This document shows positions 2,957-60,945 of a stretch of DNA of 64,000 nt, in pieces. The stretch is from a phage. Under the pieces are notes generated by a model. It made no database searches, was not told where the DNA came from, and saw only the letters and a list, made by a program, of their open reading frames with translations. The stretch's first letter is position 1; each line of letters starts with the position of its first letter. Where the stretch lies: the sequence record MZ956761.1; one strand, 5' to 3'. Position numbers and translations under genes: made by a program.

Positions 2957-3637
2957 ATGATAGATAAAGATTATATTGCAGAGCTGAAGGCTCTTGATGA
3001 TAATAAAGAAGCTAAAGCTAAATTAGCTGAATATGCTGAACAGTTTGGTATAAAGGTCAAAAAGAATAAATCTTTTGATAATATCGTTAATGATATTGAA
3101 GAAGCCCTCCAGAAGCTCGCTAGTGAACCTATGCCAGAGACTGATGGGTTATCTATTAAAGACTTAATTGATGCTGCTGATGCTGCAGACGGATTAAAAT
3201 ATGACGATGAAGAAGTCAATCCAGAGGCAGCACTTCTGATTGATTCTCCGGTTAAATCTGACATTAAAATTGAAGTAGTAGAAACGGATAAAATTCTTGA
3301 AAATACCGATGTTTTGATTGAAGATACTCCTTTTGTTGAAGAAAAATTCGAGCAGGCTGTAGCTGAGATTATTGAATCTGAAAAGCCGTCTGTATTTACT
3401 CTTCCGGAAAACTTTAGTCCGAATCTTCAGCTGATTGGAAAAAATCCAGGATTCTGCACTGTTCCTTGGTGGATTTACCAGTGGATTGCTGAAACTCCGG
3501 ATTGGAAATCTCACCCAACTAGTTTTGAACATGCGTCGGCACACCAAACTTTATTTAGCTTAATTTACTACATTAATCGTGACGGATCAGTTCTAATTCG
3601 TGAAACACGTAATTCTTCTTTCGTAACATTAAAATAA
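2957..3637 (+). CDS. inh: Inh, inhibitor of prohead protease
   Basis: 226 aa, matches T4 Inh length and position next to hoc. Confidence 0.75.
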   Translation: MIDKDYIAELKALDDNKEAKAKLAEYAEQFGIKVKKNKSFDNIVNDIEEALQKLASEPMPETDGLSIKDLIDAADAADGLKYDDEEVNPEAALLIDSPVKSDIKIEVVETDKILENTDVLIEDTPFVEEKFEQAVAEIIESEKPSVFTLPENFSPNLQLIGKNPGFCTVPWWIYQWIAETPDWKSHPTSFEHASAHQTLFSLIYYINRDGSVLIRETRNSSFVTLK

Positions 3638-54228: not shown

Positions 54229-54401
54229 ATGATGATTTAAAATATCAATTATTACGTGAACTTGATGTTTTGATTGAACTTTCTGCACAAAAAGGATTTA
54301 TAATTGGATCGGGTCAAAAAGACCCTAACGGTCATTCAATCGTAGCGGTTATGAATCAGAAACGAGTCATTTTAAAACTTTTGGGGATTGACATACTGTG
54401 A
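54225..54401 (+). CDS. hypothetical small protein
   Basis: 58-aa ORF below track cutoff; ATGA overlap upstream and GTGA overlap downstream. Confidence 0.4.
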   Translation: MNDDLKYQLLRELDVLIELSAQKGFIIGSGQKDPNGHSIVAVMNQKRVILKLLGIDIL

Positions 54402-54583
54402 GTCTAAGCAAAGAACAAAAAGATAAATTGTTTGAGCTTATCCATGAACTTCTAGATGAGCATACAGAAGCAAACACCTTTTATGATGAATACGGCCCGC
54501 TATCTCCCGAACAGCAGGAAGAATTTGCTGATCGGTTTGATAAGAAAGAAAATGAATTAATAGCTTATGTGAATACGCTTTAA
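54398..54583 (+). CDS. small acidic helical protein
   Basis: 61 aa, GTG start; resembles the small paralog family at 56402-57315. Confidence 0.45.
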   Translation: MSLSKEQKDKLFELIHELLDEHTEANTFYDEYGPLSPEQQEEFADRFDKKENELIAYVNTL

Positions 54584-56122: not shown

Positions 56123-56146
56123 AGTCTCCTTCGGGAGACTTTTTTC
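56123..56146 (+). terminator. intrinsic terminator
   Basis: AGTCTCC-TTCG-GGAGACT hairpin followed by TTTTT. Confidence 0.6.
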
Positions 56147-56155
56147 ATTTTACCG

Positions 56156-56185
56156 GTTTACTTTCCGTTTGAGCTGTGGTACTAT
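56156..56185 (+). promoter_or_regulatory. T4-type early promoter
   Basis: GTTTAC-N18-TGgTACTAT. Confidence 0.5.
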
Positions 56186-56213: not shown

Positions 56214-56402
56214 ATGAAAATTGAAGCACTTAATCAAGAAGGAAATATCTACGTCATCATTAATGGTGATTTTTTCGTCGACATGGATGAAGTTACTAGT
56301 GAAGAACTTGTAGAACTTCTTAAGAAACGCTATAATATGTGTGATGAAGTTGCAACTCGCATGGCATGTGCAATATTCTCTCTTTCATATGTGGTGGAAT
56401 AA
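56214..56402 (+). CDS. hypothetical small protein
   Basis: 62 aa from ATG with GAGGAG SD (track ORF is 5'-extended). Confidence 0.5.
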
Positions 56403-56605
56403 TGATTAGTATCGAACAAGCGGATAAAATTAAGGAATTGGTAGCTTTAATTCGTAAAGCAGATGAGGAACTTAGTGACTTTGCTTGGTTTTCATCAGGC
56501 ATTGCAAATAAAGGTATTGAAGAATTTGAAGCTAAAGTTGATAATGCTTTAGAAGCGTTAGATATGTTTCTTGATGAAATTATCGATCATAATACGAGAG
56601 TTTAA
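56402..56605 (+). CDS. small helical protein, paralog family member
   Basis: 67 aa; TAATG overlap. Confidence 0.5.
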   Translation: MISIEQADKIKELVALIRKADEELSDFAWFSSGIANKGIEEFEAKVDNALEALDMFLDEIIDHNTRV

Positions 56606-56607
56606 GT

Positions 56608-56802
56608 ATGCTAACACGTGAACAGTTTGAAAAAATCATTAAATTAGCACGTGATATTGAAATAGATTCATATCAATTAGCAGTTGAGCATTGTGAAGGA
56701 TATTCATACGACGGTATAGAAGCAGCTAAAAGAGATTTGGATAAATCCAAAGCTAAGTTAGTTCAATATCTTGAAATGATTAGGTGGAATAATGAAAACT
56801 GA
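56608..56802 (+). CDS. small helical protein, paralog family member
   Basis: 64 aa. Confidence 0.5.
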   Translation: MLTREQFEKIIKLARDIEIDSYQLAVEHCEGYSYDGIEAAKRDLDKSKAKLVQYLEMIRWNNEN

Positions 56803-56965
56803 AAAGCAGATGTTTTTAATGAAGCTAATTGAAGAATATGCTAATGCAGTTTCTGACTATGAGTATTCTGCTCGGGAAAGAGGTACGGCTTTCGCTAAAG
56901 AAGAATTGAAAATCATGGTTGATGCTCATACAAAGCTTCAGAATTTTATCGAAAATGTCATTTAA
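56792..56965 (+). CDS. small helical protein, paralog family member
   Basis: 57-aa ORF below track cutoff, overlapping previous stop. Confidence 0.4.
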   Translation: MKTEKQMFLMKLIEEYANAVSDYEYSARERGTAFAKEELKIMVDAHTKLQNFIENVI

Positions 56966-56967
56966 TG

Positions 56968-57010
56968 GTTTACAAGTTGACAAGGTTATGGTATAGTAAT
57001 CTTGTCAACT
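56968..57010 (+). promoter_or_regulatory. T4-type early promoter with flanking inverted repeat
   Basis: GTTTAC-N18-TGgTATAGT; AGTTGACAAG/CTTGTCAACT arms around the -10. Confidence 0.5.
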
Positions 57011-57129: not shown

Positions 57130-57315
57130 ATGACAAGTGAGCAGGCTTTTAAATTAAGAGAATTAATTGAGACGTATAGTAAAGCTGTTCATACATCAAC
57201 AATTATTGATGAATCAGCTTTCTCCGGACATGCTAACAAGATTAAATACAAAACTCTTATGGAAGAAGCTAAAGTAAATCTTGATTCTTATATTGAAACT
57301 TTAATTGGTAAATAA
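57130..57315 (+). CDS. small helical protein, paralog family member
   Basis: 61 aa. Confidence 0.5.
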   Translation: MTSEQAFKLRELIETYSKAVHTSTIIDESAFSGHANKIKYKTLMEEAKVNLDSYIETLIGK

Positions 57316-57316
57316 T

Positions 57317-57859
57317 ATGAAAGCTGTAATTGAAACAACTGATTTGTTCGGTGACCTGGTTATCGAAAAACGTGATAATGTATACGTTCTGACGCAGGAA
57401 GACGATAGTATTACTATTCTTCCTATGGAATTGCCTGCGATTTTATCTTATGCTCCCTCAGGAGTTACCGGTGTAACTAATATTACAGACGACCTCCAAG
57501 TTCGTTTTTATCGTGGCACTCACGGTGGTAATATTGAAACTGAACTTGCGTGTCTTTCTATCAACAATTGGGCAACATTCGTTGCCAAGGTGAAAGAATT
57601 CTTGGAATCTGAAACAGTCGAAACACCCGAAAAGGCTAAACTTCAATGGGCTAAAGATCGCGGTGCTAGCATTATTAATCCAGTAGCTGCAAATTATACT
57701 ACGACTTTGGATGTCAAGACTTCTTATGAAGATGGCGATGTCGTACTTGTTCGCCAAATTGATGATTCTCGAGCACATATTGTCACATTTACCAAAGACG
57801 AAGCTATTGCACTAAAGACTTATCTTGATTCTGTTATTCCAACTATGATTTCAAAGTGA
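57317..57859 (+). CDS. hypothetical protein, tandem paralog A
   Basis: 180 aa from Met of MKAVIET; C-terminus AIALKTYLDSVIPTM. Confidence 0.5.
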   Translation: MKAVIETTDLFGDLVIEKRDNVYVLTQEDDSITILPMELPAILSYAPSGVTGVTNITDDLQVRFYRGTHGGNIETELACLSINNWATFVAKVKEFLESETVETPEKAKLQWAKDRGASIINPVAANYTTTLDVKTSYEDGDVVLVRQIDDSRAHIVTFTKDEAIALKTYLDSVIPTMISK

Positions 57860-57865
57860 GGAAAT

Positions 57866-58387
57866 ATGTTTATTTCAAGTGGAAGTGGTTTAATTCGTGT
57901 TGAATTTAAAAATGACATCTTCCTTAGTCAAGGAGATGATATTATTAAAATGAGTTATGACGAAATCAAGAAAATTTGTCATGCTCTTGAAAGTCATGGA
58001 AAAGTGAACGCTGTTATTGATATTGGCGATTTATGGGTGACACTTTATGAAGTATCCGAAGGATTTAACATTGAAGATGAAAATAACATTTTAGCTATTG
58101 ATAAAAGAAGTGATTTGTTTGATGTATTAAAAGTTTATGAACAGTCAAATGGCGGAAGAAAAGCTGCATTGATTTATCAAAAACCGCATTCATGTGGAAC
58201 TGCTTCAATCATTTCAAATATTGAAGATGAAGTTGATACTTATATGTGTGTTTTAAAAGCTGGTGGTGACCGTCATCCGGATTTTATTTCTATTCGTCAA
58301 AACAATGGAGAAATTTCATTATCAAAATCAGAAGCTGAAGCTATGATTAAGTATTTAACAACTGTTACGCCTTCAATGAAAGGATAA
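57866..58387 (+). CDS. hypothetical protein, tandem paralog B
   Basis: 173 aa; C-terminus AEAMIKYLTTVTPSM. Confidence 0.5.
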   Translation: MFISSGSGLIRVEFKNDIFLSQGDDIIKMSYDEIKKICHALESHGKVNAVIDIGDLWVTLYEVSEGFNIEDENNILAIDKRSDLFDVLKVYEQSNGGRKAALIYQKPHSCGTASIISNIEDEVDTYMCVLKAGGDRHPDFISIRQNNGEISLSKSEAEAMIKYLTTVTPSMKG

Positions 58388-58389
58388 TT

Positions 58390-58851
58390 ATGATTATTAA
58401 TGAAAACTCTTGGCATTATAAATTATTCAAATTGTTTAACGATGAATGGCAACGACCTAAGACACTATGCGCATATTTTTGGTCTATTGTCATTCCTACA
58501 TTTTTCGTTTCTATTTTTGGGTGTGCTATACTCGTAGGGCTAACAATTATTTGTGCAGAAAGCCTACAACGTTGGCTTATTTTCGGTAGTTTATGGACTC
58601 TTCTTCCATCGGCATTTATACTTGCGCTTTTGGTTGTTTTACTTATTATCGGTTCATTTGTTATTCCTGCACATTTGCGTGAAAAATATAAAGATTATAA
58701 ATGGAAAAAGGATTATGCTTTACACGTAGAAAATATTGATAGAGCGTATAAAGGTTTACCTCCTATTCAACCCAAGAAATCGGTTATCGTTGAATTTTTA
58801 AAAGCTCGTAAAGCTAAAGTATGTCCTGTTATTGAATATAAGGCTGAATGA
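58390..58851 (+). CDS. two-TM inner-membrane protein
   Basis: 153 aa; two long hydrophobic helices and a basic C-terminal tail. Confidence 0.5.
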   Translation: MIINENSWHYKLFKLFNDEWQRPKTLCAYFWSIVIPTFFVSIFGCAILVGLTIICAESLQRWLIFGSLWTLLPSAFILALLVVLLIIGSFVIPAHLREKYKDYKWKKDYALHVENIDRAYKGLPPIQPKKSVIVEFLKARKAKVCPVIEYKAE

Positions 58852-59861
58852 TGAAAACAGTAATGAAAAGCTATTTTGGTAGTCATCTTTATGGAACTTC
58901 TACCCCAGAATCTGATGTAGATTTTAAAGAAATTTTTGTTCCTCCTGCTCGCGATATTCTTATCGGAAATGTTAAAGAGCACATGAGTAAAAACACCAAC
59001 AACACATCATCTAAAAACACTAAAGATGATATTGACCATGAACTATACAGTCTTAAGTATTTCTTTAAATTAGCAGCAGATGGTGAAACTGTAGCATTGG
59101 ATATGCTCCACACTCCACCTGAACTAGTGGTTAAATCTGATTTACCTGATGTATGGAAATTTATCCAAGACAATCGTTCACGGTTTTATACAACTAACAT
59201 GAAATCCTATTTAGGATATGTCCGCAAGCAAGCTTCTAAATACGGTGTCAAGGGTTCTCGTTTGGCCGCATTACGTGATGTATTGAAAGTAGTTAATCAA
59301 ATCCCTGACCAGTGGGTTGATTATCAAGAAGACGGTTCTATTAAGCAGCGTCGCACTAAAGTTGAAGATATTAAGCATCGTCTTCCAGAGAACGAATTCT
59401 GTGAATGGGTATTCCATAATCATGAGAAAACCGGTCCACAAACGTTCTACACTGTGTTGGGTCGTAAATATCAGACAACACTTTCTCTTATTGAGCTTAA
59501 GCAGTCACTGAACAAATTAGATGCTGAATACGGCGAACGTGCTCGTAAGGCTGAAGCGAATGAGGGCATTGACTGGAAAGCTCTGAGTCATGCTTGTCGT
59601 GGTGGACTCCAACTATTGGAAATTTACAAAACTGGTGACTTAGTCTATCCACTTCAAGACGCTCCATTTATTCTCGACGTGAAGCTGGGTAAACACCCAT
59701 TTAAAACTGTTCAAGAGTTTTTGGAAGATGTGGTCGATCAAGTAGAAGCAGCATCCATTGAAGCTTCTAAGAACGGTATGCAGCAAAAAGTAGACATGGG
59801 TTTTTGGGATGACTTCCTTGAGAGGGTTTATCTTGAAAACCACCGAAGTTATTATAAATGA
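58848..59861 (+). CDS. Pol-beta-superfamily nucleotidyltransferase
   Basis: 337 aa; N-terminal motif FGSHLYGTSTPESDVDF (hG[GS]-x10-DhD); ATGA overlap with the upstream membrane protein. Confidence 0.55.
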   Translation: MMKTVMKSYFGSHLYGTSTPESDVDFKEIFVPPARDILIGNVKEHMSKNTNNTSSKNTKDDIDHELYSLKYFFKLAADGETVALDMLHTPPELVVKSDLPDVWKFIQDNRSRFYTTNMKSYLGYVRKQASKYGVKGSRLAALRDVLKVVNQIPDQWVDYQEDGSIKQRRTKVEDIKHRLPENEFCEWVFHNHEKTGPQTFYTVLGRKYQTTLSLIELKQSLNKLDAEYGERARKAEANEGIDWKALSHACRGGLQLLEIYKTGDLVYPLQDAPFILDVKLGKHPFKTVQEFLEDVVDQVEAASIEASKNGMQQKVDMGFWDDFLERVYLENHRSYYK

Positions 59862-59864
59862 TAA

Positions 59865-59888
59865 GGGAGCCTTCGGGCTCCCTTTTTT
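59865..59888 (+). terminator. intrinsic terminator
   Basis: GGGAGCC-TTCG-GGCTCCC hairpin followed by TTTTTT. Confidence 0.6.
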
Positions 59889-59912
59889 ATTTCAAAAATT
59901 TTTCACAAAACT

Positions 59913-59955
59913 GTTTACAAGCATAAAGCTTTATGGTACTATACAACTATCAACT
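59913..59955 (+). promoter_or_regulatory. T4-type early promoter
   Basis: GTTTAC-N18-TGgTACTAT plus ACAACTATCAACT; palindrome CATAAAGCTTTATG in the spacer. Confidence 0.5.
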
Positions 59956-59976
59956 GATACGGATTTGGAGAATAAA

Positions 59977-60945
59977 ATGAAAACTGTAACTATCAATAAG
60001 GGTATCTACTTCGGTAAAGAAATCTCTGGAACTTTTGAGCTCTTAGGTGAATGGTTCCCAGATAATGCTCCGGTAGATGCACAAGGAGATGGTAAAGTTT
60101 TTGTTGAAATTGACGGTAAACGTCGCGGTGTTTGGGTTTACAAATCAGACATTTCATATGATGGTGTAAAAGTTGAAGAAGTTAAAGAATCATATGAAGA
60201 TATGAAAACCCGCATTAATAAAAGATTTAATGTTATGGGAATGATGACGAATGGTATTATTAACGGAAACATTCGTTCATTAATTATCTCTGGTGCGGCA
60301 GGTATTGGTAAAACGTATTCTTTAGATAAAGCTTTAAATAAAGCAAATGATATTGGATACATTGAGTATAAAAGCATTAATGGTAAAATCTCTGGTATCG
60401 GTCTTTATGAACAGCTCTGGAATAATCGTGAAGAGAATTCTGTCCTTTTGATTGATGATGTGGATGTTTTCTCTGATATGGACATTCTTAATCTTCTGAA
60501 AGCTGCTTTGGACACTGGAGAGACCCGTAAAGTCTGCTGGAGCACTGCATCTTCTTACTTAGAAGAAAAAGGCATTGAGCGTGAGTTTGAATTTAAAGGA
60601 ACGATTGTTTTTATCACAAACGTTGATATTGACCGCGAATTAGACCGTGGTACTAAACTTGCTCCACATTTACAAGCATTAGTGTCCCGCTCAGTTTATT
60701 TAGATTTGGGTGTTCACACTAATGAAGAAATTATGGTCAGGGTTGAAGATGTTATTCTTTCAACCGACATGATGCAAAAGCGCGGTCTTTCTGATGAAGA
60801 AACTTATAAAGCATTATCATGGATGAAAGTCAATGTTAACCGTTTACGCAATGTTTCACTGCGTACTGCTCTTTATCTTGCTGACTTTATTATGACCGAC
60901 AAAAATGGTTGGGAAGAAATCGCTGAGGTTACTCTTCTGAAATAA
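59977..60945 (+). CDS. P-loop ATPase (AAA-like)
   Basis: 322 aa from Met of MKTVTINKG; Walker A SGAAGIGKT and Walker B VLLIDDVD. Confidence 0.55.
   Translation: MKTVTINKGIYFGKEISGTFELLGEWFPDNAPVDAQGDGKVFVEIDGKRRGVWVYKSDISYDGVKVEEVKESYEDMKTRINKRFNVMGMMTNGIINGNIRSLIISGAAGIGKTYSLDKALNKANDIGYIEYKSINGKISGIGLYEQLWNNREENSVLLIDDVDVFSDMDILNLLKAALDTGETRKVCWSTASSYLEEKGIEREFEFKGTIVFITNVDIDRELDRGTKLAPHLQALVSRSVYLDLGVHTNEEIMVRVEDVILSTDMMQKRGLSDEETYKALSWMKVNVNRLRNVSLRTALYLADFIMTDKNGWEEIAEVTLLK

Follow-up and report, generated by a model that had tools for sequence, protein, structure and literature searches.

In a 64,000-nucleotide stretch of phage DNA (sequence record MZ956761.1, hereafter the window; all coordinates count from its first letter), two adjacent genes at 57317-58387 were found to be old paralogues of the uncharacterised mobD.1 gene of phage T4. 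By its sequence we assign the window to Tequatrovirus, a genus in which two copies are the normal state, as is ordinary for the 'hyperplastic' regions of T-even phages. The product of the first gene (copy 1) is predicted, from a structure model, to have three repeats arranged as in Pur-alpha. The family's conserved core is the C-terminal one of these, which is also found as stand-alone genes of about 75 amino acids in other genera, and a small membrane protein is encoded directly after the last family gene at all nine loci compared. These stand-alone genes and the linkage to the membrane protein are the new observations of this work. The two genes and their domains are as follows.

57317..57859, plus strand: copy 1, 180 amino acids, positional orthologue of mobD.1 (ATG at 57317, stop codon 57857-57859)
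57317-57613, plus strand: N-domain of copy 1 (amino acids 1-99, repeats I+II), Pfam T4_y05I_N
57638-57844, plus strand: C-domain of copy 1 (amino acids 108-176, repeat III), Pfam T4_y05I_C
57866..58387, plus strand: copy 2, 173 amino acids, divergent paralogue of the RB32ORF097c type, Pfam T4_y05I_N + T4_y05I_C
57869-58150, plus strand: Pfam N-domain of copy 2 (amino acids 2-95)
58169-58378, plus strand: Pfam C-domain of copy 2 (amino acids 102-171)

Paralogy and maintenance of the two genes

A preliminary description, made from the sequence alone, had taken the open reading frames (ORFs) at 57317 and 57866, of about 175 amino acids each, for adjacent paralogues that resemble each other at both ends. 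The two proteins, 180 and 173 amino acids long and encoded on the same strand, are truly paralogous: BLASTP aligns them end to end with 28% identity across 173 aligned positions (pairwise E = 3e-8). Their Smith-Waterman score of 91 compares with a mean of 30 +/- 4.9 and a maximum of 57 in 2000 shuffles (z = 12.4), far from the background-level identity over the full length that the description had named as evidence against paralogy. The peptides that it quoted from both ends are present, and the N-halves (z = 7.0) and the C-halves (z = 6.9) are each significantly similar by themselves. Comparison of the N-half of one copy with the C-half of the other gave no signal (z = 1.2 and -0.6); the similarity is therefore colinear and not compositional. 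The proposal of a tandem duplication that has since diverged stands only in part. The copies are adjacent, on the same strand, colinear and similar above chance over their full length, with a spacer of 6 nucleotides, but they are not sister lineages: in the neighbor-joining (NJ) tree described below, they are not each other's nearest relatives when compared with orthologues from other genera.

Pairwise ratios of nonsynonymous to synonymous substitution rates were 0.04-0.25 for copy 2 and 0.22-0.54 for copy 1; for the gene at position 1 with both of its allele types they were 0.10-0.54, and for the downstream membrane-protein gene 0.07-0.54. From these values we take both copies to be functional and under purifying selection. 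That one of them is a decaying redundant duplicate, or that their likeness is due to chance or composition, is in our judgement very improbable. Both genes are fragmented in phage T2, copy 2 is missing from T4, and the region is not needed in the laboratory (PMC9825161). In the window, however, neither gene is disrupted and both show purifying selection, and copy 2 is conserved at >=90% in 433 genomes, for which the decaying-duplicate reading was rejected; chance or compositional similarity was rejected on the shuffling result and on the Pfam matches, which have E values below 1e-16 for both domains in both proteins. In T2 (NC_054931, 1152-2119), the mobD.1 and copy-2 genes are broken into pieces of 97, 57 and 63 amino acids, whether through pseudogenisation or through frameshifts introduced in sequencing; the T2-type copy 2 and that of the window share only 57% identity.

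Membership of the MobD.1 family and existing annotation

Both proteins match the Pfam families T4_y05I_N (PF24449; copy 1 113.5 bits, E = 8e-33; copy 2 118.4 bits, E = 2.4e-34) and T4_y05I_C (PF24448; copy 1 62.0 bits, E = 7e-17; copy 2 80.2 bits, E = 1.4e-22), in N-to-C order, over the full length and above the gathering cut-offs of 24.9 and 27 bits, respectively. These family names derive from T4 Y05I, which is MobD.1 (UniProt Y05I_BPT4). Both copies also match phrog_1502 (E ~1e-67) and lie at the syntenic position of the family, between the rI.-1/mobD.2-5 genes and nrdC.11. The flanks on both sides are 96% identical to T4, and the gene order is the same in phages G4498, RB32, phiD1 and Kha5h. 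Copy 1 occupies the position of T4 mobD.1 itself and its final 19 residues are identical to those of T4 MobD.1, but overall identity is only 47% and copy 1 clusters with Mosigvirus alleles. Copy 2, at 25% identity to T4 MobD.1, is a separate lineage with no counterpart in T4. RB32ORF097c of phage RB32 is 96.5% identical to copy 2 and has the same neighbours, and is thus the same gene in another isolate. Copy 2 was found at >=90% amino acid identity in 433 phage records and at >=80% in 434.

The paralogy is already present in database annotation and hence is no new observation: the RB32 GenBank record (2006) describes RB32ORF097c as 'similar to mobD.1' and the next gene as 'replaces mobD', and the Kha5h record names the second gene 'MobD.1-1'. 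Other product names in circulation are errors of annotation transfer or name confusion: 'thioredoxin', 'prohead core protein', 'molybdopterin-guanine dinucleotide biosynthesis protein MobD' and 'helicase loader' find no support when the window proteins are scanned against Pfam and PHROG. The record of Escherichia phage ADUt labels NrdC.11 through NrdC.7 'thioredoxin' and the membrane protein 'prohead core protein', and in many records MobD.1 and MobD.4 carry the molybdopterin MobD name through a mix-up with bacterial mobD/mobA.

A word-indexed search with copy 2 alone returned only close relatives, and an alignment query with an exhaustive profile search was needed to reach the wider family. 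Among 1.84 billion representative proteins, this search found only 25 family clusters at E <=1e-3, which comprise full-length proteins of six types and roughly a dozen stand-alone proteins, 65-87 amino acids long, with the C-domain only. All members whose genomic source could be traced come from T-even-type phages or contigs.

Predicted fold of copy 1

The AlphaFold2 model of copy 1, built from a 39-sequence, more diverse alignment, has a mean predicted local distance difference test score (pLDDT) of 86.3. Its predicted order is b-b-b-b-a, b-b-b-b-a (amino acids 1-99), a linker, and five strands followed by a long helix (amino acids 108-176; b, strand; a, helix), and it shows the b-b-b-b-a repeats, two per domain, that define the PC4-like/PUR fold. 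PC4-like domains occur as type I, an intramolecular pair of repeats, and type II, a dimer of single repeats; Pur-alpha has both; it forms dimers via repeat III and perhaps also heterodimers with the paralogous Pur-beta (PMC7549692). The predicted architecture of copy 1 fits this description. Repeats I+II are predicted to form an intramolecular type I domain, which superposes best on Pur-alpha repeats I-II, and repeat III is predicted to be a single type II repeat like repeat III of Pur-alpha (PDB 3k44, 5fgo, 8chw).

A Foldseek search of the PDB with this model yielded no match at E below 1e-3; Pur-alpha repeat III was the sole high-probability match (template modelling score 0.63-0.77, E 0.04-0.1). 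Within the family, hhalign related repeat I to repeat III (probability 86%, P = 5e-6), and did not link repeat II to either of them at the sequence level. In a Pfam scan of both proteins at E up to 1, neither PurA nor any nucleic-acid-binding family was matched, and searches of PDB sequences, with single sequences and with a profile, gave chance-level matches only (MJ223, TRAP1; best E = 0.07, to an unrelated protein). No PUR or PC4 family is thus matched by sequence. The resemblance is therefore one of fold and architecture only, and the proteins are not members of the Pur-alpha family proper. The Pur-alpha/PC4-like superfamily, with Whirly, MRP1/2 and PC4/Sub1, is the nearest fold class, and copy 2 shares the domains of copy 1 by sequence. 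A PC4 homologue is known from phage T5 (PDB 4bg7), but it is a single-repeat, basic binder of single-stranded DNA implicated in replication and recombination, without sequence relationship to the MobD.1 family and in a different genomic context.

A single-repeat core and a conserved membrane-protein partner

The two genes directly downstream of copy 2 are those that the preliminary description had called a membrane-protein/nucleotidyltransferase pair, and both identities hold.

58390..58851, plus strand: membrane protein, 153 amino acids (hydropathy scan; phrog_944 'membrane protein'; isoelectric point (pI) 9.4)
58848..59861, plus strand: NrdC.11, Pol-beta nucleotidyltransferase of the RlaP family (PF10127; Pfam RlaP E = 3.4e-11; phrog_388 E = 7e-137)

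In the membrane protein, the hydropathy scan places hydrophobic segments at about amino acids 25-98, followed by a basic C-terminal tail. All-against-all BLASTP detected a homologue of about 150-167 amino acids (E 1e-12 to 1e-91) directly after the last family gene in 9/9 loci: Tequatrovirus, Mosigvirus, Dhakavirus, the metagenomic T-even contigs L010 and L011, Gelderlandvirus, Jiaodavirus, Kanagawavirus and an Enterobacter phage. This includes loci that carry only the single repeat. Gelderlandvirus SEA1, a Salmonella phage (L012), has two tandem C-domain-only genes at 3001-3237 and 3227-3457 (Pfam E = 6e-25 and 8e-5) ahead of the membrane homologue, and this pair may be an independent tandem duplication; Jiaodavirus has one single-repeat gene, then the membrane homologue. 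A reverse search from the membrane protein found a stand-alone T4_y05I_C gene immediately upstream in Kanagawavirus and in the Karamvirus-like Enterobacter phage (E = 5e-14 and 2e-17). The linkage to RlaP is looser, with no RlaP gene adjacent in SEA1 and one at a distance of two genes in Jiaodavirus. A KwaB match of the Jiaodavirus membrane protein (E = 0.017) is weak and was treated as noise.

Several small genes were seen beside family members. Those of DUF7189 (L010 989-1189 and 1543-1707; L011 4339-4557; L013 2814-3005) align by hhalign with family repeat I (probability 81%) and repeat III (87%) and carry the family signature '...I.Q..d..I.L...Q.e.L'; repeat I of copy 2 has a sub-threshold DUF7189 match (E = 2e-4). 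These sequence matches suggest that they are probably further single-repeat relatives. A Phage_tudor-domain gene of about 88-92 amino acids lies immediately upstream of the family gene at three loci (L004 3733-3999, L018 997-1275, L019 963-1241), and in L010 (1286-1546) one small gene stands between the two. In phiD1 (L014, 793-1059), the same position holds an 88-amino-acid gene, and in the window the Phage_tudor-domain gene is absent from that position.

T4 as the derived state

Blastn of the window against T4 gives 96% identity up to 57141, none until 57725-57884 (90%), and again 96% from 58847 onward; the nrdC.11 region is likewise 96% identical. Where copy 2 and the 153-amino-acid membrane gene stand in the window, T4 has the HNH homing endonuclease gene mobD. 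After the stop codon of T4 mobD.1, the sequence GGAAAT-ATGTTTATTTCAAGTGGAA corresponds to the ribosome-binding site and the first six codons of copy 2; homology breaks past the copy 2 start and resumes exactly at the start of nrdC.11. Because T4 retains this beginning of copy 2, its single-copy state is derived. In T4 (NC_000866, 57258-57283), the remnant sits in a 23-codon ORF (MFISSGTDMCYKCKAKLNETKNQ) ahead of mobD, a scar left when the mobD cassette took the place of copy 2 and the membrane gene. At >=95% identity, mobD was found in only 47 phage records. The short segment of resumed homology marks both the left edge of this replacement and the mosaic junction in copy 1.

57725..57884, plus strand: 90% identity to T4 (blastn + alignment); 3' end of copy 1, spacer and first 19 nucleotides of copy 2

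Mosaic structure of copy 1 and origin of copy 2

Compared with T4 MobD.1, copy 1 is 40% identical in the N-domain and 35% at amino acids 101-136, and 80% identical over the last 44 amino acids. Compared with Mosigvirus ATK47, it is 70% identical at amino acids 1-100 and 55% at 101-136, and the first 136 codons, with a GC content of 40%, are 74% identical in DNA. On this evidence copy 1 is a mosaic whose first 136 codons are Mosigvirus-like and whose last 44 are T4-like. Position 1 is polymorphic in phage records: 73 carry the window type (>=90% identity), 153 a type at 60-80%, and about 500 the T4 type (~48%). Mosigvirus-type alleles are 67-77% identical to copy 1.

Copy number varies between relatives. 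In Mosigvirus (ATK47) and Dhakavirus (Bp7), a single copy precedes the membrane protein and nrdC.11, and L010 and L011 have one recognised copy each. Some metagenomic Tequatrovirus-like contigs (L004 4001-4540; L005, L006, L007) carry a single in-frame chimeric gene, P0011, whose DNA consists of the 5' two-thirds of a T4-type copy 1 (92% to RB32) and the 3' third of copy 2 (87%), with a junction of 9 overlapping nucleotides at homologous '...DET...' codons. A fusion in frame at homologous codons implies that the paralogues have recombined as homologues, by unequal recombination, at least once. In L004 the chimera precedes a Mosigvirus-like membrane gene (80% identical to ATK47).

In the bootstrapped NJ tree, copy 2 and its T2-type relative form a deep lineage of their own (98% bootstrap). 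The position-1 genes of Tequatrovirus and Mosigvirus cluster without copy 2 (97%), Dhakavirus-type genes form a second clade with copy 2 outside (97%), and copy 1 of the window joins the Mosigvirus alleles (92%), not the T4-type allele. In this set, copy 1 is closer to the Dhakavirus orthologue (34% identity) than to copy 2 (30%); at 25-30% identity, long-branch artefacts or accelerated evolution may affect such a distance tree. From the placement of copy 2 outside the Tequatrovirus and Mosigvirus clade, a recent in-situ duplication within Tequatrovirus was rejected, so that either the split is old, or copy 2 evolves fast, or it was captured from another phage. The last of these, in which unequal or illegitimate recombination between co-infecting T-even phages brought in a divergent allele and no in-situ duplication took place in the Tequatrovirus ancestor, has perhaps one chance in three in our view. 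It would account for the position of copy 2 outside both clades, and it fits a locus in which copy 1 is itself a Mosigvirus-like allele joined to a T4-like 3' end, alleles at 48%, 67% and >=90% identity circulate at position 1, and the paralogues do recombine. The GC contents of the copies also differ (39.2% for copy 1, 31.2% for copy 2), but this gap is gone when T4-type copy 1 (28.4-28.8%) is set against RB32 copy 2 (31.8%). Fast evolution after a duplication would give the same picture in an NJ tree through long-branch effects, and the 1.84 billion representative proteins yielded no donor with a copy-2-like gene at position 1.

Possible function

The family is acidic throughout (pI 4.2-4.9): full-length members have a net charge of -3 to -24, and their N-domains of -9. 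At the invariant or near-invariant positions, Q, D, E, N and hydrophobic residues predominate, and a single Lys is conserved. The nucleic-acid binders of the superfamily are usually basic. In the comparison of copy 1 with T4 MobD.1, it is the N-domain that varies and the C-terminal end that is constant. By analogy with Pur-alpha, the proteins may act as dimers joined at the C-terminal repeat, each copy with itself and perhaps copy 1 with copy 2; the single-repeat bacterial Pur proteins, which dimerise via their lone repeat, offer a model for this. The idea draws on the likeness of the predicted repeat to 5fgo, 8chw and 3n8b and on the existence of the stand-alone single-repeat genes. Such a dimer would work with the co-conserved membrane protein and might dock on its basic cytoplasmic tail. 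The acidic, allele-variable N-terminal domain would be the target-binding module, and its ligand is more likely a protein, or the domain a mimic of nucleic acid, than naked nucleic acid. Two divergent copies together with a polymorphic copy 1 could then widen the range of targets. We hold this combined mechanism tentatively, at somewhat below an even chance; the account as a whole, which joins it to the facts on the MobD.1 family, seems to us about as probable as its negation. Going further, the family might be a phage-specific PC4/PUR-like branch in which the dimerising repeat is coupled to a small inner-membrane protein, the variable acidic two-repeat domain is a decoy or binder of host factors (e.g. 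defence or nucleic-acid-binding proteins) and paralogue heterodimers widen the targets. The locus would then serve T-even phages as a membrane-anchored module, so far unrecognised, for host takeover or anti-defence. We consider this extended version improbable as it stands.

A number of points weigh against the dimer and membrane mechanism. Since T-even phages have broadly the same gene order, common descent could explain part of the adjacency to the membrane gene; nor is the pairing obligatory, as T4 has MobD.1 but lacks the membrane protein. The constant 3' end of copy 1 could simply mark the recombination junction and not constraint on the protein. The AlphaFold2 model of copy 2, from a shallow alignment of 31 sequences, is poor (pLDDT 55) and was left out of the fold search. 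Our literature search on MobD.1 and y05I found no functional work, and thus no experiment on any member of the family. Finally, the nrdC.11-mobD.3 block of T4 can be deleted in the laboratory (PMC9825161), although this dispensability would fit an accessory role in host interaction.

The proteins might instead be classical Pur-alpha/PC4-like binders of single-stranded nucleic acid, with a type I N-domain that binds single-stranded RNA or DNA and a dimer that hands damaged RNA ends (e.g. of tRNA) to NrdC.11 or modulates transcription. This would explain the Pfam label 'putative transcription factor', and the PC4-like superfamily shares nucleic-acid-binding beta-sheet surfaces (PMC7549692), but the same fold is also found in the non-binders SsgA, KhtT-N and PsiB. 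RlaP extends damaged RNA 3' ends by 1-2 nucleotides (PMC12776372), and a role in phage RNA repair has been predicted for it (PMC7824862). Tequatrovirus, Mosigvirus, Dhakavirus, L010 and L011 have its gene in the same unit, but in SEA1 it is not next to the family genes, and in Jiaodavirus two genes intervene. The acidity of the whole family, the nature of its conserved residues with their single Lys, and the absence of PurA or other nucleic-acid-binding matches in the Pfam scan all speak against this explanation, which we regard as rather unlikely. Because of the acidity and the lone conserved Lys, a protein-binding or decoy adaptor is ranked slightly above it.

Gene neighbourhood and transcription unit

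Over the 1.8 kb that span both genes, the window is 100% identical to Escherichia phage ADUt (OQ466432) and 98% identical to many other Tequatrovirus genomes. Upstream lie the genes for thymidine kinase, rI, rI.-1 and small mobD.x genes, and downstream nrdC.11 and nrdC.10. Features of this neighbourhood, in addition to the genes listed above, are:

56123-56140: terminator of rI.-1
~56156-56185, plus strand: second early-like promoter site, spotted by eye just past the rI.-1 terminator (GTTTAC, 18 nucleotides, TGgTACTAT)
56969..56997, plus strand: early-type promoter-like site, probable start of the unit (TTTACA, 17 nucleotides, TGgTATAGT; top-scoring in the scan, 10/12 matches and an extended -10 TG)
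57130..57315, plus strand: DUF7438 gene, 61 amino acids, directly upstream of copy 1 (Pfam DUF7438 E = 1.4e-15)
59863..59884, plus strand: intrinsic terminator-like hairpin closing the unit (9 bp stem, 6 GC pairs, T-run; annotated terminator at the same site in phage G4498)

Public records use the ATG at 57317 as the start of copy 1, one base past the stop codon of the DUF7438 gene. Spacing is equally tight further on: 1 nucleotide between the DUF7438 gene and copy 1, 6 between the copies, 2 between copy 2 and the membrane gene, and -4 between the latter and nrdC.11. On the plus strand, no terminator-like hairpins were seen between the promoter-like site at 56969-56997 and the hairpin at 59863-59884. 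The earlier proposal that both copies share a transcription unit with the downstream pair thus agrees with spacing, promoter and terminator positions as read from the DNA. No late promoter (TATAAATA) was found on the plus strand beyond 55191 in the window, and a single MotA-box-like site is present at 56545.

T4 lacks the DUF7438 gene at the position next to copy 1, and it is within this gene that the upstream blastn homology to T4 ends. The gene is one of five paralogues of 57-67 amino acids (Pfam E from 1e-15 to 3e-19) that form a second, larger paralogue array of the region, three of them in direct tandem: 54398-54583, 56402-56605, 56608-56802, 56792-56965 and 57130-57315. RefSeq names one of them 'helicase loader', after the PHROG name. 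At the other end of the unit, a 378-amino-acid ORF at 59809-60945 spans the terminator and overlaps the end of nrdC.11; as other records start NrdC.10, which has AAA/STAND-like ATPase matches, at ~59976, this ORF is probably over-extended.

Significance

Paralogy alone matters little here, since it is routine in the hyperplastic regions of T-even phages and was already annotated. What is gained is a first structural handle on an uncharacterised T4 family, in the form of a predicted Pur-alpha-like three-repeat architecture, a conserved partner in the membrane protein, and an evolutionary account with T4 as the derived state, a mosaic allele as copy 1 and copies that are able to recombine. If membrane-coupled dimers with a variable target domain prove to be correct, the family would join the small early T4 proteins that manipulate the host, and the locus would offer a natural setting in which to study the diversification of such functions by tandem paralogues and allele exchange.

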